Shown here piece by piece: positions 2,939-37,770 of a DNA stretch of 40,136 nucleotides. The notes beneath the pieces are model-generated. The model was not told the origin of the DNA and made no database searches. It saw only the letters and a list, made by a program, of their open reading frames with translations. Numbering within the stretch: position 1 is the first letter of the stretch; the number at the start of each line of letters is the position of its first letter. Source of the stretch: a virus (taxonomy: Duplodnaviria; Caudoviricetes). The translations under genes and the position numbers were made by a program. Location of the stretch: the IMG/VR virus record IMGVR_UViG_3300036797_000039, positions 1 through 40,136 of that record, one strand, 5' to 3'.

Positions 2939-5143
2939 ATGGCCGCCCCTGAAGCAAAAGAGATCCGCGACATTTACGCCGCTTACCGCTCGGACTGGCA
3001 AGACATCCGCGACGAGGCGAACACCGACATGCGTTACGTGCTCGGCGATCCCTGGGATCCGAAGGATCGCGAGGCGCGCGAGGACGCCGGCCGGCCGTGC
3101 CTCTCGCTCGACGAGCTCAATCAATATCTAAATCAGTATGTAAACAACCTTCGCCAGCAGCGCCGCGCGATCAACGTCACGGCGAAGGGCAACGGCGCGA
3201 CCGACGAAGATGCGAAGAAACGCTCCTCGCTCATCATGGGAATCGAAGAGCGATCGCAAGCGCAAGGCCCATATATTTGCGCCGGTCAAAGCGCCGCAGA
3301 GCGCAGTTACGGCTTTGCCGTTGTCCGCACCGAGTACAAAGACTTTGAGAGCTTCGATCAGGAGATTTTAATCAAGCCGGTTTTGAACCCGGATTCCATC
3401 CTCATCTCGCCGAACTACAAGCAGCCGGACGCTTCCGACATCCCAGACGGATTCATCCTCGAGCTGATGCCACGGGATCAATTCAAACGGCAACACCCGA
3501 AAGCGAAGATCACCGACTTCGTGGGCGACGCCGTGAGCGATGCGTCGACCGCGGACTGGATCAAAGAGAAATTCGTTCAACGCGGCGAATATTGGCGTGT
3601 CGAGTACGACACCGAGAAGCTCTTGCTCGTGCAAATGAAGGGCGGGCACGTCGTCATCGTCAAGGAATCGGAGTGGAAAAACCGCCGCGGCGGCGAAGAG
3701 GGCGAAGTCAAGCGCGAGCGCGATGTGCAACGGCCGCGCGTCGTGCAATACCTGACGAACGGGCTCGAGATCCTCGACGAGAAACCGTGGGCAGGAACGC
3801 GGATCCCGATTTGCACGTGCCTCGGCAAAGAAATGTGGATCACCGAAGGCGGCGTCGCGAAGCGCAAGCTCATTTCGATGGTGCGCCTGGCGCGTGATCC
3901 GCAAATGCTTTTTGCTTTCCTCGCGACGCAAGAGTGCGAAGAGGCCGGCCAGATCCCGAAAGTGCCGTTCGTCGGCTACACCGGGCAATTCCAATCGGAC
4001 GAGGAGACCTGGAAAGAGATCAACAAAGTTCCGCACGCATTCGTGCAAGTCGATCCTATTCCGGACGGCCAGGGCGGCATTTGCCCGCTTCCGCAGCGGC
4101 CGGCCTATCAGCCGAATTTCCAGCAATACGAGCTCGCAAAAGACTCCGCGCGGCGATCGATCCAAGCCGCTTTCGGTATCGTGCCACTCCCGACGGCCGC
4201 GCAGCGCTCTAACCAGAAATCAGGGATCGCGCTCGACAAGATCGAAGAGCAAGAGGCGATCGGGAGCTTCCATTTCGCCGACAATTTCAAGCGCTTTCTG
4301 CATAACGTCGGATGGCAAGTAAACGAGCTCATCACCCCGATCATCGACACACAGCGCGACCAGGCGATCTCGAAGCCGGACGGCACACGGACGACGCTGC
4401 AGCTCGTCGGCAAAACCTCACACCCGATCGACAAAGACGGCGCCTATGAAGTCCAAGGCCTCGACGACGGCCATTTGCACACCGGCAAAGGCGACTTCGA
4501 TGTCACGATCGGCGACGGCCCGAGCTACGCCTCAGAACGCGAGAAGCAATCCGACTTCAGCGATCGCTTACTCGATCGGCTCGAGACCTTGCCGATTCCG
4601 CCGGCGATCGCGCAGAAGATCCTCGCGCTCGCGATCAAGATGAAAAACGTCGGCTCACTCGGCGACGAGATCGCGCTCTTACTCAATCCGCCGGACCCGA
4701 AGAATCTCCCGCCGGCCGCGCAAGCGATCATCACGCAGCTACAGGGGCAGAATCAGCAGCTCACCCAGGAAAACTCGACGCTCCACATGGAGCGCGCCGG
4801 CCGCGTGCTCGAGCAGCAGACGAAGATTCATTTGAAAGAAATGGACGGGCAGCAAAAGCTCGACGCAAAGACGATCGATTACATCACGCAGATCGTCAGA
4901 GCGGAGCTCGCGAAAGGTTCGAAGCAGGACGCAACGAAGGCGCAGATCGACGCGCAGAAAGAGCTCACGCAACTCGGCTTCGATCACGATGCGATCGCCC
5001 GCGGGCACGAGGCCGCGCACGAAGTCGCGATGAGCGGGCTCGAGCACAACCGTACGAAAGAGCTCGCAGCTACAGCTCAGGCCGCACAGCCGGATCAGGC
5101 ACAACCCGATACCGGCGCGGCATCTGGAACACCGGCTGAATGA
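2939..5143 (+). CDS. P22-like portal protein
   Basis: 734 aa; RPCLSLDELNQY..NNLRQQR, MVRLARDPQ and SGIAL motifs; C-terminal coiled coil; position before scaffold and coat. Confidence 0.92.
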   Translation: MAAPEAKEIRDIYAAYRSDWQDIRDEANTDMRYVLGDPWDPKDREAREDAGRPCLSLDELNQYLNQYVNNLRQQRRAINVTAKGNGATDEDAKKRSSLIMGIEERSQAQGPYICAGQSAAERSYGFAVVRTEYKDFESFDQEILIKPVLNPDSILISPNYKQPDASDIPDGFILELMPRDQFKRQHPKAKITDFVGDAVSDASTADWIKEKFVQRGEYWRVEYDTEKLLLVQMKGGHVVIVKESEWKNRRGGEEGEVKRERDVQRPRVVQYLTNGLEILDEKPWAGTRIPICTCLGKEMWITEGGVAKRKLISMVRLARDPQMLFAFLATQECEEAGQIPKVPFVGYTGQFQSDEETWKEINKVPHAFVQVDPIPDGQGGICPLPQRPAYQPNFQQYELAKDSARRSIQAAFGIVPLPTAAQRSNQKSGIALDKIEEQEAIGSFHFADNFKRFLHNVGWQVNELITPIIDTQRDQAISKPDGTRTTLQLVGKTSHPIDKDGAYEVQGLDDGHLHTGKGDFDVTIGDGPSYASEREKQSDFSDRLLDRLETLPIPPAIAQKILALAIKMKNVGSLGDEIALLLNPPDPKNLPPAAQAIITQLQGQNQQLTQENSTLHMERAGRVLEQQTKIHLKEMDGQQKLDAKTIDYITQIVRAELAKGSKQDATKAQIDAQKELTQLGFDHDAIARGHEAAHEVAMSGLEHNRTKELAATAQAAQPDQAQPDTGAASGTPAE

Positions 5144-5261
5144 CGATTTTTTGTTCGAACTCTGAGCAGAGCGGGCACCAGATGCGCTCGATCGTGACAC
5201 CGTGATCGGCGTGCACCTTGTAGGTTTTGCCGGGTTCAAGGAACGGCGTGATGCATTTCAT
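5070..5261 (-). CDS. Small protein, possibly a degenerate capsid C-terminal fragment
   Basis: Coupled (TAAATG) to 5262-5489; weak similarity to coat FVKAWDPVRSMQINRF; overlaps the portal 3' end. Confidence 0.4.
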   Translation of the reverse strand: MKCITPFLEPGKTYKVHADHGVTIERIWCPLCSEFEQKIVIQPVFQMPRRYRVVPDPAVRPEL

Positions 5262-5489
5262 TTAAAGGGACGGCGCCGGCTTCCCCAGATCCGCCGCGCG
5301 CTGCTCGAGCAAGTAATCCTGCTCGCGCTTGAGCTGTTCGAACGCGGGTTGGATGTAGATCTCCGAAAACTGTTCGAACGGCAGCGCCAGATCCGACTCT
5401 TCGACCTTCACCAACACTTGAGAGATCGCGGCGTCGGGATCTTCGATCGCACCTTTTTGCAATTTGAGAAATAACCAGTTTTGTTCCAT
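5262..5489 (-). CDS. Capsid spine-helix fragment protein
   Basis: EQFSEIYIQPAFEQLKREQD vs coat aa101-120 EEIKEQYLEPAGVQIAQEID (8/20 identical); paralog of 10942-11130. Confidence 0.75.
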   Translation of the reverse strand: MEQNWLFLKLQKGAIEDPDAAISQVLVKVEESDLALPFEQFSEIYIQPAFEQLKREQDYLLEQRAADLGKPAPSL

Positions 5490-6655: not shown

Positions 6656-7891
6656 ATGGCAGACCAGTTCCTTAACACCGGATGGATTTCGATGGAAGTC
6701 CTCCGCAACCTGAAGAACGCGATGAAAGTCGCGGAATACTTCAATAATTCGTGGGAGAAGGATTACGAGAAAACCTTCGCCGTGGGCTCGACGATCACGG
6801 TGAAATTTCCGCAACAGTTCCTCATCCGCGACGGCCTCGCATACAACCCGCAAGGCATCAACCGCATTTCCACAACCGTTTCGCTCGACCAACCTTTCGG
6901 AATCGATTTTCAGTGGGACGATTACGAAGCCGCGGTCAAGGCGGAGCGCTCCGAAGAAGAGATCAAAGAGCAGTATCTCGAGCCCGCCGGCGTGCAGATT
7001 GCGCAGGAGATCGACTCGCGTGCAGCTCTGTTCGCCAAGAACAACACGTCACAGATCCAGGGCTCGCTCGGCGTCGATCCGACGAGTGTCGTGTTCTTAG
7101 ATCTCGCTCGAGCTCGCTTGCTGCAAAAGGCCGCTCCGCAGGGTAAGCGGTGCGCGCTGATCTCCTCGTCCATGATGACGAACTCCATCAATACCCCGGT
7201 CACTAGCTTGCTTCAGCCGAGCGACGAGATCACGATGGCGTTCAAAGAAGGAGCACTCGGCCGCCTGAAAGGCTTCGATCTATTCGAAGAGCAGTCGCTA
7301 TACACGCACGTCGCCGGCACCTGGGCGGCTGCGGTCACCGTCACCGGCGCCGGGCAGTCGGGCTCCACGCTCATCGTCACCGGCACCGCGAACGACACCA
7401 TCAACCAAGGCGACAAAATCGCGGTCGCGAACGTGAATTTCGTCAATCCACGTACGCGGCGCATTGCCGGCCCGAAAGTCGCGCAGACCTTCTCCGCGAC
7501 GGCTAACTATGTCCTCACGGGCGGAGCGGATGCGATCGGCATCGTGCCCGCGATCTTCGGACCGGGCAGCCAGTACCAGAACGTCGACGCTTTGCCGGCT
7601 AACGGCGCCGCTTTGACTCTGTGGCCTGGCACGAACAACCCGAACGGCGCTTCTGGCACCGTCGGACTCGCGCTCACGCGACAGGCCTTCGCCGTCGTCG
7701 GCATGCGTTTTTACAAGCCGAAGTCGGTCGAGGCTTGCAGCCAGGCCGAAGATAAGCAAACCGGAATCCCGGTGCGCTTCGTCAAGGCGTGGGATCCCGT
7801 CCGCTCGATGCAGATCAACCGTTTCGATACGGTCGTCGGCTTCGGAAACCTGTATCAAGACAACGGCGCAGTCGCGCTGCTCGGAGCCTAA
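6656..7891 (+). CDS. Major capsid protein, P22 gp5-like (HK97 fold)
   Basis: 411 aa; EVLRNLKN, GSTITVKFPQQF, YLEPA..IAQEID, GDKIAVANV..VNP and GIPVRF..RFD..GFG motifs. Confidence 0.92.
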   Translation: MADQFLNTGWISMEVLRNLKNAMKVAEYFNNSWEKDYEKTFAVGSTITVKFPQQFLIRDGLAYNPQGINRISTTVSLDQPFGIDFQWDDYEAAVKAERSEEEIKEQYLEPAGVQIAQEIDSRAALFAKNNTSQIQGSLGVDPTSVVFLDLARARLLQKAAPQGKRCALISSSMMTNSINTPVTSLLQPSDEITMAFKEGALGRLKGFDLFEEQSLYTHVAGTWAAAVTVTGAGQSGSTLIVTGTANDTINQGDKIAVANVNFVNPRTRRIAGPKVAQTFSATANYVLTGGADAIGIVPAIFGPGSQYQNVDALPANGAALTLWPGTNNPNGASGTVGLALTRQAFAVVGMRFYKPKSVEACSQAEDKQTGIPVRFVKAWDPVRSMQINRFDTVVGFGNLYQDNGAVALLGA

Positions 7892-9335: not shown

Positions 9336-10154
9336 ATGCCGATCGGTGGACCAAATCAGCCGCCCGCGCCGCTCTCGTACACCGTCGGAGACATTTGCAC
9401 CGACGCGCTCATCGAGATCGGCGCGCACCCGCCAGGGGAACCGCTAGATGCCGAGGAGGCGCAGTGGAGTTTGCGCAAGGCGAATTACCTTTTCGACGTG
9501 TGGGGAGCGCTACGCGGGAAGGTTTTCTCGTTCGCGTTCAACGTCTACACGCTCACGCCGGCACTCTCGCCGCACACGATCGGCCCGAGCGGTCAAGCAA
9601 CCTTCGCGACAACCGGTCCGCGGCCGGTCAAAATCGAATCGGCCGCGCTTCTCCTCCCCGGCTCGAACGGACCGTTCGATCAGATCATCAAAGTGCGCGA
9701 TGCGGCATGGTGGGCGGCGCAGCAAGCGAAGTCGATCCAAAACAACATTCCGACGGATCTCTTTTACAATCCGGCTTCGCCCGACGGGCAGATCTATTTC
9801 TGGCCGGTTCCAAACGCCGCCTCGCAGGTGCGTTTGCAGACATGGCAGAGCGTTACGCAGTTCGTCGCCATCACGGACCCGATCGGCGGCCCGAACGGCC
9901 CCGGCACGCTTCCGCCTGGCTACCGCGCGGCGATGATGTACTCACTCGCCGAAGAGCTTTGCCCAGGCGCGAAGAAAACTCCGTCGCCGGCACTCGTCGC
10001 CGCGGCTTTGCGCGCGCGAAACGCGGTTTTCGGGAATAACATGAAGTCGCCGCGCACGTCGACGCAAGACTCAGGAATGCCGCGAAGCGGCACAGGGCGG
10101 AGGAGTGATTTCAACTATCTCACCGGCGGAAAAGTCGGCGGGCGGCCGGAATAG
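9336..10154 (+). CDS. Head-tail adaptor (P22 gp4-like position)
   Basis: TVGDICTDALIEIGA..GE, RPVKI, IYFWPVP and LPPGYRAAMMYSLA motifs. Confidence 0.8.
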   Translation: MPIGGPNQPPAPLSYTVGDICTDALIEIGAHPPGEPLDAEEAQWSLRKANYLFDVWGALRGKVFSFAFNVYTLTPALSPHTIGPSGQATFATTGPRPVKIESAALLLPGSNGPFDQIIKVRDAAWWAAQQAKSIQNNIPTDLFYNPASPDGQIYFWPVPNAASQVRLQTWQSVTQFVAITDPIGGPNGPGTLPPGYRAAMMYSLAEELCPGAKKTPSPALVAAALRARNAVFGNNMKSPRTSTQDSGMPRSGTGRRSDFNYLTGGKVGGRPE

Positions 10155-10165
10155 GCAGAGGGCGA

Positions 10166-10657
10166 TCACTTATATCTGATCCCGAGCTCCTCGAGCGAGC
10201 CCATCGGAATAGCCATGTGAGGGTGAAGCGGTTCGCGCCAATGCACGCCCCGCATCTCGCAGGGCTCCGAAACAGCCAAGTACGAGGCGAGATTGTGAGT
10301 CGCTTCGTGGGGCACTAGAGTGCCCGTCGCGCGCTCGATCGCTGCGATTGCCGTTGCAAGTTCTAACGGCTGATTCGGGCTCGACATTAGGTATTCGCAC
10401 TCGTGCGCTAGCCGCGGCGACGGCGTCAAGTCTCCAACCCCGCGCAGGACATCAATTCGGCTGATGATGGAGCCCATGAATTCGGGCGACCAGGCGCGAA
10501 TAAAGCGCACGGTCGATCCGGCGGGCAGGATCACATTGCCGGGCACAATGATTTTCGACGGGAACGACCAGACGCGACCGAAGGGAATTTGCTCCGCGAT
10601 CGCGGCGCCGGCGAGGCCGGCGGCAAGCATTCCGAGAAAGCCTCGGCGGTTCACCAT
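10166..10657 (-). CDS. Tat-signal protein carrying a capsid C-terminal fragment
   Basis: NRRGFLG signal; GSTVRFIRAWSP..ISRIDVLRGVGDL vs coat aa370-399 (13 identities over about 30 aa). Confidence 0.8.
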   Translation of the reverse strand: MVNRRGFLGMLAAGLAGAAIAEQIPFGRVWSFPSKIIVPGNVILPAGSTVRFIRAWSPEFMGSIISRIDVLRGVGDLTPSPRLAHECEYLMSSPNQPLELATAIAAIERATGTLVPHEATHNLASYLAVSEPCEMRGVHWREPLHPHMAIPMGSLEELGIRYK

Positions 10658-10932
10658 CGCGCACCCTCGAGGGCGCGCACATACTCGCGCACGTACCAGC
10701 GCTGAGGGATCCGGAAATGCGCCTCGCTCACGAGCGGAGAGGCGTCGGCCAACCGCAGGTTTTCTTTGAGCACTCGCAAAACCTCGCGCGTCACGTAGTC
10801 GAAGTCAAGAGCGGGATCCGTGATCACGATCTCTTTTGGGAAAGACCACACGCGGCCGAGCGGGATCGTTTCCGCGATCGCGGCGCCGGCGAGGCCTAGA
10901 CCAAACAGTTTTAGAAATCTGCGACGCTCCAC
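10651..10932 (-). CDS. Tat-signal protein carrying a capsid N-terminal fragment
   Basis: ERRRFLK signal; LDFDYVTREVLRVLKENLRLAD..FRIPQRWYVRE vs coat aa6-27 and aa49-59. Confidence 0.8.
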   Translation of the reverse strand: MERRRFLKLFGLGLAGAAIAETIPLGRVWSFPKEIVITDPALDFDYVTREVLRVLKENLRLADASPLVSEAHFRIPQRWYVREYVRALEGARW

Positions 10933-10938
10933 AAAAAG

Positions 10939-10967
10939 ATTATGCCTGAAGATGTTCTAACTCTCAC
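10939..10967 (-). promoter_or_regulatory. Putative sigma70 promoter for the Tat cassette (leaderless)
   Basis: GTGAGA-17 bp-CATAAT, then 6 nt, then GTG start at 10932. Confidence 0.5.
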
Positions 10968-11130
10968 GCTCCGAATGCACGACCCCGACGAGAAGCAGGA
11001 TGCCTCGCTTTCGGCATCATGGGCAGTCGTGCGCGTTCCACGCTCAGACCTACAACTCGCGCACGCCGACTTCCTCGCGAAGTACGTCGTGCCGGCACTC
11101 GCCGAACTGAAGCAGTTGAAGCTCACCTAA
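10942..11130 (+). CDS. Capsid spine-helix fragment protein (paralog of 5262-5489)
   Basis: VRVPRSDLQLAHADFLAKYVVPALAELK vs VKVEESDLALPFEQFSEIYIQPAFEQLK (12/28 identical). Confidence 0.75.
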   Translation: MPEDVLTLTLRMHDPDEKQDASLSASWAVVRVPRSDLQLAHADFLAKYVVPALAELKQLKLT

Positions 11131-11134
11131 GACA

Positions 11135-12595
11135 ATGGCAAAAAAAGGCGATTGGGGTTTTTGCGGTCCGACCTACACGGCGGAATCGCCCGTCATCGAC
11201 GCGGAAGACGCAATGAACTGCTATTGTGAGCGCTCCGAGTCGAAGGGCGCGCGCGTGCCGATCGCGCTTCTGCATACGCCAGGCCTCAAGGGACTCGGAG
11301 CCGTCGGCGAGGGTTCGATGCCGGGCACCTTCAGCGTGAACGGCCGCACCTTTTTTGCCGCGTCGAATCTTTACGAGCTCGCCGCGGACGGCTCGACGAC
11401 AAACCGCGGCTCGCTCGGCGGCGTGCCATCGACGCCGACGCAGATCACCGCGAACCAGACGCAGCTCGTCATTTTGAACAATGGCAGTCTCTTCGTGCTG
11501 ACACTCGCGACGAATGTCCTCGTCGCCGTCAACATGGCGCAATTCAATGGCCCGGTCGCGCAGATGGATCATTGCGACGGCTACATTATCGCGACGCTGC
11601 AAAACTCGCACACCTTCCAGACTTCGAGCCTCGGCGATGCGACCACGTGGAGCGGCCTCGACATCGCGACGATCTCGTATTTTCCGGACAACATCGTCTC
11701 GTTCAAAGTCGATCACCGGCAACCCTGGTTTTACTCGAACAAAAAGGCGATCGGCTATTACAACGGCGGCGCCGGCTTCCCGGTGTTCATTCCCTACCCT
11801 GGCGCGGAGCTCACCGACGGAGCCGCGGCCGCGTTTGCCACCGTGTCGGCCGACAACACGCTATTTTTCCTCAGTCAAAACGAAGATGGCGCCATGATGG
11901 CGAAACGGCTTACCGGGCTCAACTCGAGCGAGAGGATCTCGACGCATGCGGTCGAGCTCGCCTGGCAGAAATATAAAGTTTGGTCGGACGCCGTCGCCTA
12001 TGCGTTCCAGGAAAACGGTCACACCTTCATCCATTTTTATTTCCCGACAGCGAACGCCTCTTGGCGATACGACGCTTCCACGGGCCTCTGGCACAAAGTC
12101 GGCTACTACGTCCCGGCGAGCGGGCAATACATCGCCCATCGCTCGATGTGCCACACGTTCAACTTCGGGATGCACATCGTCGGCGATTGGTCGACGGGAA
12201 AGATTTATCAAATGTCATCGCAGATCTATACCGACGATGGCAACCCGATCCGCGGCTATCGCCGCACGCCGACGATTTCGAAAGACAACGAGTTTGTGTA
12301 CTACGACGAGATCGAGATCGACTGCGAAACCGGCCTCGGACCGCAACCGGCGCTCGTCGACGGCGACGGGCAGCCGCGGGATCCGCAGCTCATGCTGCGA
12401 TGGTCAAACGATGGCGGGCGGAATTGGTCCAATACTTACTATCTCCATTGTGGGCTCGCCGGCGAGACGAAACGCCGCGCGCTGAAGCGCATGCTCGGCC
12501 GCGGCCGCAAAAGAATTTGGGAAGTCGCATGGACGGATCCCGTTCCCTGGCGCTTCGCCGATGCCTATCTGCGACTCGAGCCGGAAGCGGACTAG
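11135..12595 (+). CDS. Tail hub / packaged-DNA stabilization protein (P22 gp10-like)
   Basis: GFCGPTY..NCY, RISTHAVE, YAFQENGHTF, YDASTGLWH and MLRWSNDGGRNWS motifs. Confidence 0.9.
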   Translation: MAKKGDWGFCGPTYTAESPVIDAEDAMNCYCERSESKGARVPIALLHTPGLKGLGAVGEGSMPGTFSVNGRTFFAASNLYELAADGSTTNRGSLGGVPSTPTQITANQTQLVILNNGSLFVLTLATNVLVAVNMAQFNGPVAQMDHCDGYIIATLQNSHTFQTSSLGDATTWSGLDIATISYFPDNIVSFKVDHRQPWFYSNKKAIGYYNGGAGFPVFIPYPGAELTDGAAAAFATVSADNTLFFLSQNEDGAMMAKRLTGLNSSERISTHAVELAWQKYKVWSDAVAYAFQENGHTFIHFYFPTANASWRYDASTGLWHKVGYYVPASGQYIAHRSMCHTFNFGMHIVGDWSTGKIYQMSSQIYTDDGNPIRGYRRTPTISKDNEFVYYDEIEIDCETGLGPQPALVDGDGQPRDPQLMLRWSNDGGRNWSNTYYLHCGLAGETKRRALKRMLGRGRKRIWEVAWTDPVPWRFADAYLRLEPEAD

Positions 12596-12922
12596 ATGCC
12601 GACGAAGATCATCACACTCAACCCGCCGCCGGTGCGCGCTGCGGATATTCCCGAACCGCTGAGTAAGTGGCTGCTAGCGGTGCAAAACCTTTTGCCGCTC
12701 TACGAAGTCAACACGTCGGGCGGCCCCTATTCTGAAGCCGTGCCGCCGGCCATCTCGACCGGGCAGCCGAAGCAAGGGATGGAGATCACCTTCGTAAAAG
12801 TCTCGGCCGACGCGAATGTCTACACCCTCACCGGCGTGCAGCTCGGGAATTTGACACTCACCGCGCAAGGCGATCGCTTCAAAGTCAAATGCGACGGCAC
12901 GGTTTGGTGGAGAACCGGTTGA
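12596..12922 (+). CDS. Small tail protein (gp26 needle position)
   Basis: Synteny; beta-rich C-terminus ending DGTVWW. Confidence 0.6.
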   Translation: MPTKIITLNPPPVRAADIPEPLSKWLLAVQNLLPLYEVNTSGGPYSEAVPPAISTGQPKQGMEITFVKVSADANVYTLTGVQLGNLTLTAQGDRFKVKCDGTVWWRTG

Positions 12923-13374
12923 GCATCTTCAGAAGCCGCGACTGGAAGGCGATCAAAGCTCTCGCGTGCGATCCCGCAATCTTTCGCCACATTTCGGACG
13001 ACTACACGTCGGACCCGGCGAAGTGGGAGCCCATGCAGAGCGAGCAAATTTGCTATTTGCTCGCGGCCGACGATTCCGGCCTCTTCGGCTTCGGGATTTT
13101 CATGCCGACAAATTGGGTTTGCTATTCGGTGCACCTCGCCTTTCTCCCGCGCAGCTACGGAGCGCGATCGCTTGCTCATTTCAAACAAATGATCGAGTGG
13201 ATGTGGAAGCACACGAAGGCGGCGCGCATCGTCGGCGAGATCGACATCGACAACCGGCGAGCGATTCGCTTCGCGCGCGCGGCCGGCTTTGTCTCGTACG
13301 GCATCAACGCGAAAAGCATTCAGCGCGGCGGAATTTTACACGACCAGGTCGCACTCGGGATCTCGAGGCCTTAA
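12919..13374 (+). CDS. GNAT-fold protein, P22 gp14/DUF2824-like
   Basis: TTG start overlapping the upstream TGA, GGAG SD; VHLAFLP..YG and NRRAIRFARAAGF motifs. Confidence 0.8.
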   Translation: MSIFRSRDWKAIKALACDPAIFRHISDDYTSDPAKWEPMQSEQICYLLAADDSGLFGFGIFMPTNWVCYSVHLAFLPRSYGARSLAHFKQMIEWMWKHTKAARIVGEIDIDNRRAIRFARAAGFVSYGINAKSIQRGGILHDQVALGISRP

Positions 13375-28585: not shown

Positions 28586-28764
28586 GCGCGCAGAGCACGA
28601 TTCTCCCGACGACGGTGCAATTTATGCGCTACTGCCTACGCTGCGACTCGGAACAGATATTCACCGCGGGCTGGGAGTGCGCCGAAGGCCTGGTCGGTTG
28701 CTGCCTGAATTGCGGCGACGAGCGGATCGCGCCGTTCACGAGAACGATCGACGAGGCCGCATGA
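28582..28764 (+). CDS. Small Zn-ribbon protein
   Basis: CLRC...CLNCG. Confidence 0.6.
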   Translation: MSAQSTILPTTVQFMRYCLRCDSEQIFTAGWECAEGLVGCCLNCGDERIAPFTRTIDEAA

Positions 28765-29594
28765 TGCAGCCAATTCGAGTTTTCCCTGGTCGCACAACGA
28801 TGACGCCGGATGATCCTCTCGCGTTCGTGGGGTTCCCTCCTTTCGCCGAGTTTCGTCCCGCGGATCCCGCTACGCCGGTGCTTGTGAGTGTCGTTTTCAA
28901 ATGGCTGCGCGAGCGAGCGGAGCGAATTGCGGATTCGTGGCGGATGTATTACCGCGATGTGCGTGTCGGCGGCCCGGCCTACGGCGACTTGGGATCGGAG
29001 TTTACGCCTGGAATGTTTCTCAAAAAGGGCTGCACTATCACCAGTCGCGGCTGCGTGAAGCACTGCGGTTGGTGTCCGGAACGCTTTAATCCTCTCCGGG
29101 AGTTGGAAATAAAACCCGGCTGGATCGTGCAGGATTCGAATCTTCTCGCGTGTTCCGAGCCTCACGTGAGAAAAGTTTTTGAGATGTTGCGCGAGCAGAA
29201 TCGCGGAATTTATTTCAACGGTGGACTCGACAAGCATTTTCTCAAAGACTGGCATCGCCCACTGTTCGACTCGATCAAAATCGGCGAGTTGTGGTTCGCT
29301 TGCGACCGCACGGACGAATTGCCTTGGATTGAACGCGCGGCGAAGATCCTCGACGGGATCCCGCAGAGAAAACTCCGTTGCTACACCATGATCGGCTACG
29401 ACACTGAAAGTTTGCGTGATGCCGAATGGCGCAACGAGCGCGTGCTGCAGTTGGGGTTTATGCCCTTCTGCCAGCTCTATCAGCCCGACGATCGCGTGAA
29501 GGTGTATTCCGACGAGTGGCGGAACGTTCGTCGAAAATGGGCGCGACCGGCAGCTTATATGCCGGCGGCGCCGCCGGACGCAGAGGCGGCATGA
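28761..29594 (+). CDS. Radical SAM protein
   Basis: TSRGCVKHCGWC (CxxxCxxC), GGP, DSNLLA and FNGGLD motifs. Confidence 0.85.
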   Translation: MMQPIRVFPGRTTMTPDDPLAFVGFPPFAEFRPADPATPVLVSVVFKWLRERAERIADSWRMYYRDVRVGGPAYGDLGSEFTPGMFLKKGCTITSRGCVKHCGWCPERFNPLRELEIKPGWIVQDSNLLACSEPHVRKVFEMLREQNRGIYFNGGLDKHFLKDWHRPLFDSIKIGELWFACDRTDELPWIERAAKILDGIPQRKLRCYTMIGYDTESLRDAEWRNERVLQLGFMPFCQLYQPDDRVKVYSDEWRNVRRKWARPAAYMPAAPPDAEAA

Positions 29595-34758: not shown

Positions 34759-34838
34759 ACCTTACCGCTAAGGTGAGTGAGAGTCAAGCGGAATCTGTAA
34801 AATAACCTTGCAATCTTGGCGCTAAGGTGTCATATTTT
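34759..34838. promoter_or_regulatory. Divergent promoters with two related 16-bp operators
   Basis: Leftward TTGACT-17-TAAGGT; rightward TTGCAA-17-CATATT; operators accttaccgctaaggt (34759-34774) and atcttggcgctaaggt (34813-34828). Confidence 0.7.
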
Positions 34839-34845
34839 GGCTCGT

Positions 34846-35001
34846 ATGACCGAGAAAAACGCCGCCGCCGTGGCGCTGGGAAGGGCTGGGGGCCTCGCGC
34901 GGGCGAAAAACCTCTCCGAGAAGCAACGCCGCCAGATCGCCACCAAGGCCTCAAAGGCCGCCTCCGCCGCCCGGAAGAAGAAAGCCCAGAAGAAAGGCTG
35001 A
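34846..35001 (+). CDS. Small basic GGxARA/KGG-like protein, candidate regulator
   Basis: KNAAAVALGRAGGLARAKNLSEKQRRQIA. Confidence 0.7.
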   Translation: MTEKNAAAVALGRAGGLARAKNLSEKQRRQIATKASKAASAARKKKAQKKG

Positions 35002-35006
35002 TTTCC

Positions 35007-35495
35007 ATGCACAAGACCACCCCTCAGCCCTTTTTGCGCGGCCTCCTCGACCGCGATGCGGCAATGCTCCTGCGCTGGCGCAACGACCCTGAAACCCGCC
35101 GCAATTCGATCCGCACCGAGGAAGTCTCCCAGGAAGAGCACGCGAAGTGGGTGCAAGACAGAATTCTGATCCACACCGGCTCCGTCTTAATCGCCGACAT
35201 CGATAACGTCTCGGTCGGCGTCGTGCGGATGGACTGGAACGATTCCGACGATGCCTGCGACCTGTCCTTTACCGTCGCACCCGAACATCGAGGCAAGGGG
35301 TACGGCTTCGCGATGGTCGCTCGCGCACTGGAGCAGATCCGCGGCGACGTGCGGGTTACGGCACTCGTGAAACTCTCGAACGAAGCCTCGCGCCGCATCT
35401 TTGAAAAGCTCGGGTTTCAGGTGATCGACAGCGAAGGCGAGCTTTTGATGTACGCCAAGGACCTGCCAGGGGAACAGACCGCTTTGCGGGCCTAG
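35007..35495 (+). CDS. GNAT N-acetyltransferase (RimL/PseH-like)
   Basis: WRNDPETRRNS..EEH..W, VAPEHRGKGYG and NEASRRIFEKLGF motifs. Confidence 0.85.
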   Translation: MHKTTPQPFLRGLLDRDAAMLLRWRNDPETRRNSIRTEEVSQEEHAKWVQDRILIHTGSVLIADIDNVSVGVVRMDWNDSDDACDLSFTVAPEHRGKGYGFAMVARALEQIRGDVRVTALVKLSNEASRRIFEKLGFQVIDSEGELLMYAKDLPGEQTALRA

Positions 35496-36848: not shown

Positions 36849-37058
36849 GTGGTCCAACTCGTGCTCAACGATGTGTATGTGATCGGCGCAGCCGGATTTT
36901 GGCTGAATCGTTGGCGCGCGCCTCTGACGCCGGCGCCGATCGCGCTCGGCCGACGCGCGAAAATCGAACACGAAGGCATCGGCCGCTCGATCCGCGCGAA
37001 TCGCTTGCGCATTGCAACTGTGATCGATGTCGTCGTACCTGAAGAAACGTCGCTGTGA
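36849..37058 (+). CDS. Hypothetical protein
   Basis: Stop overlaps the next GTG. Confidence 0.45.
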   Translation: MVQLVLNDVYVIGAAGFWLNRWRAPLTPAPIALGRRAKIEHEGIGRSIRANRLRIATVIDVVVPEETSL

Positions 37059-37228
37059 AACTTTTGCAAATCCCGATTCGCGAGAAGCTCTTCCACGAGC
37101 TGATCGATGCCGCGGCCGAGTGCTATCAGCCGGACGAGACGCCGCGGTTAACGCCGGAGCAGTTCGCGCTCGAGGCGATCGAGACAACTCTCGCGCAGCG
37201 CCGGCTCGAACGGATCGGCGCGCTGTGA
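37055..37228 (+). CDS. Ribbon-helix-helix-like protein, 57 aa (not in the ORF track)
   Basis: MKLLQIPIREKLFHELIDAAAE..LTPEQFALEAIETTLAQ; GTGA overlaps at both ends. Confidence 0.6.
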   Translation: MKLLQIPIREKLFHELIDAAAECYQPDETPRLTPEQFALEAIETTLAQRRLERIGAL

Positions 37229-37770
37229 AAATCGCTCTCTACGCTCGCGTCTCGAAGCCGCCGAAAGGTGAGCTGAACGATCTGCAGCGCCGCGACCAGG
37301 ATCCCGAAGTGCAACTCCGCCAGTTGCGGGAGTGGGCAACAAAGAACGGGCACACGATCGTCGAAGAGTACGTCGACCGGATCTCCGGAAAAACTATTTC
37401 GCGGCCTGGCTTCGACCGCTTAATGTCGGACGCGACGCGCGGCACGCGAGACATCGAAGCCGTCGTCGTGTGGCGCCTCGATCGCTTCGGCCGATCGATG
37501 CAGCATTTGCAGAATTCGGTCGCCTCGCTCCGCGACGCGAACGTCGCATTCGTGAGCCTGAAAGAAGGCTTCGATCTCACAACCCCGATGGGTAAAGCGT
37601 TTTTCGGCATGCTCTGTGTGTTCGCCGAGTTTGAGCGCGACATCATCATCGAGCGCACGAAGGCCGGCATGGCGAATGCGCGCTCCAAGGGGCATCTACC
37701 AGGCCGCAAGGTGGATCCGTCCCGCGGCCCGAGCCGTACGACCATTTGGCGCCGCAGTCGCGCCTCTTAG
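37225..37770 (+). CDS. Small serine recombinase (resolvase/invertase family)
   Basis: IALYARVS, Q..QL, SG...RPGF, WRLDRFGRS, FAEFER..I.ERT.AG; start reassigned to GTG 37225. Confidence 0.92.
   Translation: MKIALYARVSKPPKGELNDLQRRDQDPEVQLRQLREWATKNGHTIVEEYVDRISGKTISRPGFDRLMSDATRGTRDIEAVVVWRLDRFGRSMQHLQNSVASLRDANVAFVSLKEGFDLTTPMGKAFFGMLCVFAEFERDIIIERTKAGMANARSKGHLPGRKVDPSRGPSRTTIWRRSRAS

Follow-up and report, generated by a model that had tools for sequence, protein, structure and literature searches.

Why would a phage carry, against the direction of its late genes, two small genes in which a twin-arginine leader is joined to pieces that look like a capsid protein? The question is raised by positions 10166 to 11130 of IMG/VR record IMGVR_UViG_3300036797_000039; the window analysed is that whole virus record of 40,136 bp, which has direct terminal repeats and is rated 100% complete. 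The phage is a complete P22-like podophage from soil. Its portal gene (2939-5143) is of P22 type, as are the scaffold, adaptor and gp10-like genes, and the major capsid (coat) gene (6656..7891, + strand) was assigned to the P22/Sf6 type by family profile (PF11651 / PHROG 283, E 3.6e-20) and by a structure model (pLDDT 80.9) that matched the Sf6 and P22 coats at E about 1e-20 (Foldseek, 7e-21 for Sf6). The head-tail adaptor gene (9336..10154, + strand) flanks the locus on the left, with 11 nt between its end and the stop codon of ORF B, and the gp10-like head-closure gene (11135..12595, + strand) flanks it on the right. The original prediction, which described three capsid-mimic mini-genes at this site, two of them Tat-tagged, was correct in coordinates, strands and placement between the adaptor and gp10-like genes.

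ORF A (10651..10932, − strand) encodes 93 aa, a twin-arginine leader followed by two stitched coat N-terminal pieces. The leader (aa 1-37; 10822..10932, − strand) consists of RR-x-F, a hydrophobic stretch of about 12 residues and then IP-L/F-G/N-RVWSFP. The first piece (10744..10806, − strand) resembles the coat N-arm helix at coat 7-27, where the coat model has a helix at residues 8-22, with 4.1 bits reached by 0/1000 shuffles. The second (10675..10719, − strand) resembles coat strand 48-61 at the F-loop/E-loop boundary, with 22.6 bits and 0/500 shuffles on a profile built from 41 fragments of other family members, which also matches coat 41-61. Some 20 residues that separate these stretches in the coat are missing from ORF A. 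The proposed equivalence of ORF A with the coat N-terminus was thus borne out for both pieces on profiles and not by pairwise BLASTP, which gave no match to the coat (best E 1.7). In the ESM Atlas the best value for ORF A was 0.89, to viral clusters without a name, and the recognition score was low.

ORF B (10166..10657, − strand; 163 aa, or 162 from the GTG at 10654) has a leader (10544..10657, − strand), a piece resembling coat 370-401, the C-terminal P-domain hairpin (10421..10516, − strand), and then a helical region. Its likeness to the coat C-terminus was confirmed by BLASTP (E 1e-4) and by the coat profile (9.0 bits, reached by 0/1000 shuffles), and so was the paralogy of the two leaders, which are identical at 23/37 residues (E 6e-7). 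The stop codon of ORF A is overlapped by the start of ORF B (ATGGTGA), with GAGGG upstream. Each piece matches only 15-32 coat residues, and a near full-length HK97 fold is not present in A or B. ORFs A, B and C, each searched alone, did not match Pfam PF11651 or PHROG 283, and the pieces in A and B showed no DNA similarity to the phage's own coat gene (best blastn E 0.042, off target). PADLOC 2.0 (2023), which perhaps lacks Tab/Tai, gave no match for ORFs A, B, C or D or for 5070-5261.

The leader is the most constant part of these proteins. The RR pair is kept in 88/88 untruncated sequences with the core motif (four more are truncated), RR being absent from the pattern used in the scan. Like the Tat signal peptides of PF10518 and TIGR01409, the phage leaders have RR-x-F-L near the N-terminus, seen in both A and B, and then a hydrophobic stretch; they differ in having just two residues before RR, a short h-region of about 12 residues (best 15-residue Kyte-Doolittle mean 1.77 over 91 aligned leaders), an invariant RVWSFP downstream and scores below the curated cut-offs, which were missed by ORF A with 15.3 against 16.7 bits (TIGR01409) and by ORF B with 12.2 against 22.7 bits (PF10518). 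TIGR01409 was matched at E 0.1 or better by 12/18 family members. At the putative signal peptidase site (A-x-A), both window proteins have A-I-A, the family mostly G-I-A. A divergent leader variant joined to the coat C-terminal hairpin was found in a phage of the second coat subfamily (L168:1829, + strand), so the scan pattern does not span the whole leader family.

Scans with the leader alignment found 53 viral, 62 metagenome and 4 genome loci, which together with 41 coat-selected loci and the window gave 97 distinct leader proteins. The 37-residue leader was found in at least 257 protein clusters (7,997 scored candidates). The cargo behind it was surveyed in the 120 listed clusters of these 257 together with earlier matches, 205 cargos that collapsed to 172 at 70% identity. 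Among the matches listed, the coat profile was matched (E 0.05) by 79/172 cargo clusters, against 0/172 reversed and 0/516 shuffled controls. Other matches among the 172 were to the adaptor (3), the portal (3), an ejection protein (2) and the ORF C profile (2), and 84/172 had no match in the profile panel used. A module recurring in seven cargos matched the adaptor at E 4e-5. A PHROG scan of 93 cargos gave mostly weak matches, the best to the major head protein phrog_1357 (E 7e-5). The terminase profile matched 0 of the 172 cargos; a G-x-D motif occurs in 15/172 (shuffle mean 0.9), its profile reaching terminase at E 2.0, and a Walker-A-like motif occurs in 2/172, so that terminase-derived cargo is a lead only. 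By motif search, 44/172 cargos end in the antisense of the adaptor 3′ end, which indicates that much of the tail is unconstrained. Leader pairs of at least 85% DNA identity carried unrelated cargo in 6/10 cases, showing that cargo is exchanged behind the leader. Family member P0004 and ORF C had no match among 50,697 GenBank phages.

The family also occurs on four GTDB contigs, of which one belongs to a Betaproteobacteria bin and the other three to bins of Terriglobales or Acidobacteriaceae. TatC is encoded in three of the four bins holding relatives (G001, G003 and G004), one of the three TatC matches and one family member (L159) coming from the unpublished genome G003; G002 is a 1.9 Mb bin. 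In G001:C44 and G002:C25 bacterial housekeeping genes lie on both sides of the phage, so these relatives are integrated prophages. Near one prophage end in both lies a miaB-like gene with UPF0004, radical SAM and TRAM domains (L209:9437-10762 and L212:8029-9399), where the two may have integrated at a common site. In the window genome neither an integrase nor a repressor was recognised, and the sole recombinase seen is a 247-aa serine recombinase; the phage's own lifestyle and host we therefore infer. Other window genes on the + strand are radical-SAM-like (28677-29594), acetyltransferase-like (34827-35495 and 12889-13374) and the small serine recombinase (37027-37770). The gp10-like gene lies in two overlapping blocks by tblastn (about 5-131 and 55-485 or 121-485) in L004-L006, L009, L017-L019, L022-L025 and L029, which suggests an internal duplication or insertion absent from the window.

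Are these proteins maintained by selection? Over 88 leader sequences pS was 0.72 and pN 0.27, and third codon positions were least conserved. The identities at the three codon positions (0.66/0.78/0.39) ruled out that what is conserved is a DNA element or an RNA structure. In 74 aligned cargo fragments, positions deeply conserved in the coat were kept at 0.70 against 0.35 elsewhere, whereas neutral decay simulated to equal overall identity and passed through the same detector gave 0.46-0.48 against 0.38-0.43, with stop codons in 65-68% of the copies. Hydrophobic retention was 0.74 as observed and 0.51-0.52 as simulated, and the mean BLOSUM score −0.04 and −0.56, respectively. Two cargo pairs sharing derived junctions had pS 0.60 and pN 0.21, and pS 0.56 and pN 0.23 (Fisher p 3e-6 and 1e-4), the pairs having been chosen for a protein identity of at least 50%, a choice that depresses pN. 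All 5 changes in four nearly identical cargo pairs were non-synonymous, with 0 synonymous, a number too small for a verdict. Selection acts on the leader at the protein level, and simulated decay fails to reproduce the cargo pattern, so the genes are probably not decaying duplications. The idea of selected capsid mimics behind Tat-like leaders is therefore supported for A and B, by family-wide profiles, codon statistics and the decay simulation; the three-part cassette does not hold up. Such fused-leader capsid-fragment genes are a real, selected and widespread design with a function here proposed from sequence; a full-text literature search, with most subscription papers outside its reach, found no description of them.

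The coat pieces are confined to coat 1-70, 82-130, 237-283 and 369-404, and mostly to 1-60. Coverage is highest at 1-60 and rises again, less strongly, near 100-120, 245-270 and 370-400; residues 140-230 and 290-360 are not covered at all. The structural elements copied are the N-arm and F-loop, the start of the spine helix, part of the I-domain and the C-terminal P-domain hairpin. As controls, windows from seven distant coats were best detected at 211-280 and about 291-320 and rarely at the N-terminus, and mutated coat windows were detected throughout (0-8 of 10 per position, starts 301-321 left out). Uncopied regions were thus detected as well as or better than copied ones, and the uneven choice of source regions is not due to detectability, though shared descent can explain part of it. 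The N-terminal helix is likewise copied from three unrelated capsid families (phrog_1357, phrog_9953 and phrog_14242). The excerpted account of the P22 coat places the N-arm at 2-30, the F-loop at 34-50, the P-domain at 79-127 and 358-416 and the D-loop at 239-254, and has the scaffold hook binding coat D14, E15, E18 and R101 (PMC9965877). On this approximate numbering, the copied regions correspond to the P22 N-arm, F-loop, P-domain and D-loop area, which carry contacts with scaffold and between subunits.

Whether the pieces imitate the resident or a foreign capsid was addressed with 23 fragments that had a coat in the same locus, of which two were dropped for a partial coat. The resident coat subfamily gave the best mean score in 16/21 fragments, in a set where most phages come from one subfamily and two rows are near duplicates. 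The resident coat itself was the single best match in 2/21, both among the five subfamily misses. In three loci with unrelated capsid families (L076, L135 and L082) the cargo matches the resident family. The fragments are about 42% identical to the subfamily majority, and in one strand R..R is found in 30/43 fragments and in 6/7 coats of other subfamilies, while 40/45 coats of the own subfamily have K..Q. The R..R pattern would be expected from an old origin or foreign targets no less than from self-mimicry. Judged by the identity of about 42%, the lack of DNA similarity to the own coat and the R..R strand, the coat pieces appear to be old.

Each of the 62 distinct leader genes in a P22-type context, spread over several insertion sites, runs against the late genes; the other 35 of the 97 have no recognisable P22-type context. 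Of these 35, six from other phage families (L068, L071, L074, L090, L135 and L145) have the gene co-oriented with the structural genes, and two have it opposed. The pattern TAnnnT stands 6-7 nt before the start codon in 44/85 upstream regions, 25 of them with the extended TG, against at most 12 in shuffles and 0-1 of 34-51 for five core late genes. ORF A has a predicted sigma-70 promoter (10939..10967, − strand; GTGAGA, 17 nt, CATAAT; 1 site found, 0.2 expected), which ends 6 nt before the start codon and whose CATAAT is one base off the family pattern. This spacing of the −10 box predicts, from consensus match, a leaderless mRNA made by host polymerase independently of the late operon. The ATG of ORF C, read as its reverse complement, lies within the −10 box (10939-10944), and the same overlap with a divergent ATG is seen in many relatives. 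A terminator-like site at 10048-10064 was rejected, being at chance level.

ORF C (10942..11130, + strand; 62 aa), which had been taken as the third capsid fragment, is a separate conserved gene in the late-gene direction just before gp10, with a predicted beta-hairpin and two helices. More than 30 distinct sequences were found, 30 of which give pS 0.72 and pN 0.30. As a fragment of the phage's own coat it failed, with no BLASTP alignment and −1.3 bits on the profile, reached by 64/1000 shuffles. Its C-terminal half is weakly similar to the spine-helix start of the second P22-coat subfamily, to which HHalign gave the ORF C family 54% (E 1.3e-4, 30 columns), against 0.7% for the own subfamily and at most 0.23% for twelve other phage protein families. 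The hairpin-helix-helix order of its model (pLDDT 89) is that of coat 72-120. Foldseek of the model against viral models found nothing at E 0.001, and its best Atlas row by query TM was a P22-coat-family cluster at 0.57, under the tool's bar. Profile and models suggest that ORF C may be a mini-domain of older descent from the coat, serving a late function. In 24 coat-selected loci the interval from adaptor to gp10 held both a leader gene and ORF C in 6, ORF C only in 7, a leader gene only in 4 and neither in 7 (Fisher p 0.70), and two leader genes in just 1/24. Leader genes and ORF C are thus independent, the split cassette of three is not upheld, and ORF C is a neighbour with its own history and no third subunit.

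Coat look-alikes also occur without the RR leader. ORF D (5262..5489, − strand; 75 aa), counter-oriented between portal and scaffold, resembles the spine-helix start of the second coat subfamily (6.8 bits, 0/1000 shuffles). Coupled to it is a gene at 5070-5261 (− strand) with a CxxC motif, which overlaps the portal 3′ end and matched no coat on profiles. A second leader type with a hydrophobic start, H-x-W and CxxC, presumably resembling DUF1660, is joined to a coat 30-61 piece in L006:4654-4977, L032:8604-9050 and L033:8132-8434 (all − strand). Leaderless 170-aa proteins ending in coat 347-395 were found on the + strand (L113:367-888, L003:4505-5029, L030:4232-4744 and L032:4342-4869), in the first of which the chain also includes a spine-helix-start piece, much as a minimal P-domain would. 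Since coat pieces occur without the RR leader, in ORF D and others, Tat is not required for every mimic.

What, then, would the proteins do? The reading we prefer, held with rather less than even confidence, is that A and B are optional genes joining a conserved twin-arginine leader to swappable, selected coat look-alikes, which would act as Tat-linked decoys for capsid sensors. From the predicted own sigma-70 promoter and leaderless mRNA, they would be switched on in lysogens and early during infection, ahead of capsid protein synthesis. The cargo would bind host defence proteins that sense unassembled capsid protein, the leader would take the bound sensor to or across the membrane via Tat, and removal of the sensor would let the phage finish its cycle. 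Bound partners are co-exported by Tat in the excerpted account of hitchhiker export (PMC4273604), and among known sensors, as excerpted, a predicted complex places CapRel on the P-domain sheet and spine helix, with escape mutants at 114-115, and Lit is activated by the short Gol capsid peptide (PMC9712102). A decoy role fits a self-like cargo that is harmless to its owner, needs no antidote and works in either orientation; it would also account for the fast turnover of cargo, as the outcome of an arms race, and for the use of Tat, which would export a folded bound partner. One decoy exported per partner would suit low-copy sensors better than thousands of coat subunits. Against the decoy, a mimic could trigger a sensor and not silence it, the segments copied double as assembly interfaces, and the layout, counter-oriented with a promoter of its own, is that of Tab and Tai. 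Of the functions offered in the original prediction, the immune decoy would fit best and the assembly inhibitor remains; the procapsid tether would be the poorest fit, since the genes are optional and a promoter of their own sets them apart from the late operon. In a bolder form, which we regard as rather doubtful, the genes would be a recombining decoy library, the Tat leader serving as export tag and recombination handle for those capsid, adaptor and other virion pieces that host immune sensors recognise, with sensors dragged out of the cytoplasm before structural proteins appear.

The strongest rival, a serious one though on balance unlikely, holds that the genes are prophage-made assembly poisons. 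When a related phage superinfects, their pieces would attach to its coat, scaffold or portal and stop head assembly or send it astray, the leader would hold the complex at the membrane, and late transcription would silence the genes on the prophage's own induction. The uniform counter-orientation in P22-type context with a predicted own promoter, the integrated relatives in G001:C44 and G002:C25, the coincidence of the copied regions with scaffold and subunit contact sites in the excerpted P22 account (PMC9965877) and the residues typical of other coat subfamilies would all suit such poisons. The cargo is, however, most like the resident capsid family, which carries a risk of self-poisoning, and no linked antidote was seen, ORF C, the sole candidate examined (by position), being independent. 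The co-oriented gene in six phages of other families means that antisense silencing is not general, export would take the inhibitor out of the cytoplasm at a one-for-one cost against abundant coat, and the window genome has only its serine recombinase and no identified integrase.

We give distinctly less credence to a selected role of another kind, in which the leader or RVWSFP acts, for example as a ligand of an envelope receptor or by clogging TatBC, or in which procapsids are anchored by the proteins, the coat pieces being secondary. That the leader is far more conserved than any cargo, that cargo is freely exchanged and that about half of the cargos have no assignable source speak for such a role, but it leaves unexplained why coat structure-determining residues are kept in 79/172 cargos, and why the same structural elements recur in four capsid families and behind other N-termini. 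A procapsid tether, moreover, should be a core late gene, and the leader genes are optional (10/24 loci at this site).

It is improbable that the genes are by-products of illegitimate recombination, with coat pieces landing behind the leader and persisting or decaying without function. Tails that are often the antisense adaptor end, patchwork cargos and the purely non-synonymous changes (5) of the nearly identical pairs would agree with by-products, and capture, if recent, from unsampled coat lineages could mimic the cargo conservation pattern. The neutral simulation nevertheless differs from the cargos in stop codons, hydrophobic retention and BLOSUM score, the two shared-junction pairs, chosen on protein identity, have pN far below pS, and the source regions are strongly non-uniform, without DNA similarity to the own coat gene. 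That A, B and C assemble into one P-domain mimic, the split capsid first proposed, is very improbable: the three elements are P-domain neighbours in the excerpted P22 domain map (PMC9965877), the unrelated L113:367-888 has spine-start and C-terminal pieces on one chain, and the ORF C model follows coat 72-120 in order with its sub-threshold P22-coat Atlas row, but the genes are unlinked and run in opposite directions, and C has no match to the own coat subfamily. A complex prediction for A cargo, B cargo and ORF C scored 0.01 (mark 0.32) and weighs neither way.

If the proteins are decoys, they would give phages a general way to counter pattern-sensing immunity by means of a host export machine, with cargos marking the capsid surfaces that sensors read; should the decoy library be true, the copied segments would chart the parts of virion proteins that bacterial immunity detects. 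As assembly poisons they would be a modular, self-derived defence of phage against phage. The family in either case accounts for a class of small phage genes called 'hypothetical' or 'twin-arginine'.

Among known proteins, the P22/Sf6 coat (PF11651, PHROG 283) is the family that the pieces resemble, and A, B and C are without nearly all of its fold. Ccm is a full-length subunit built into shells. As excerpted, SaPIbov5 Ccm is alike in being a capsid-protein homologue that acts against or upon another capsid assembly, and differs in being satellite-encoded and redirecting capsid shape (PMC8569155), the cargos of A/B type being pieces of 20-55 residues behind an export-type leader. Tab/anti-Tab of Pseudomonas phage JBD26, in its excerpted account, shares the layout of a small optional minus-strand gene in the late operon with its own promoter; Tab acts on virion assembly through the tape measure protein, has a linked antidote and shows no similarity to known proteins (PMC10884400). 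In A and B, unlike Tab, the cargo copies capsid segments, stands behind an RR leader and is swapped, and no linked antidote was found. Tai/Ati is likewise a divergent moron in the late operon, Tai being expressed from the prophage and reduced by late transcription; it targets tails, and the excerpted account describes no export leader or copied virion segments (PMC11364771). The excerpted account of CapRel-SJ46 and Lit/Gol describes no phage decoy made from capsid pieces; these are host sensors, the kind of target that a decoy would face (PMC9712102).
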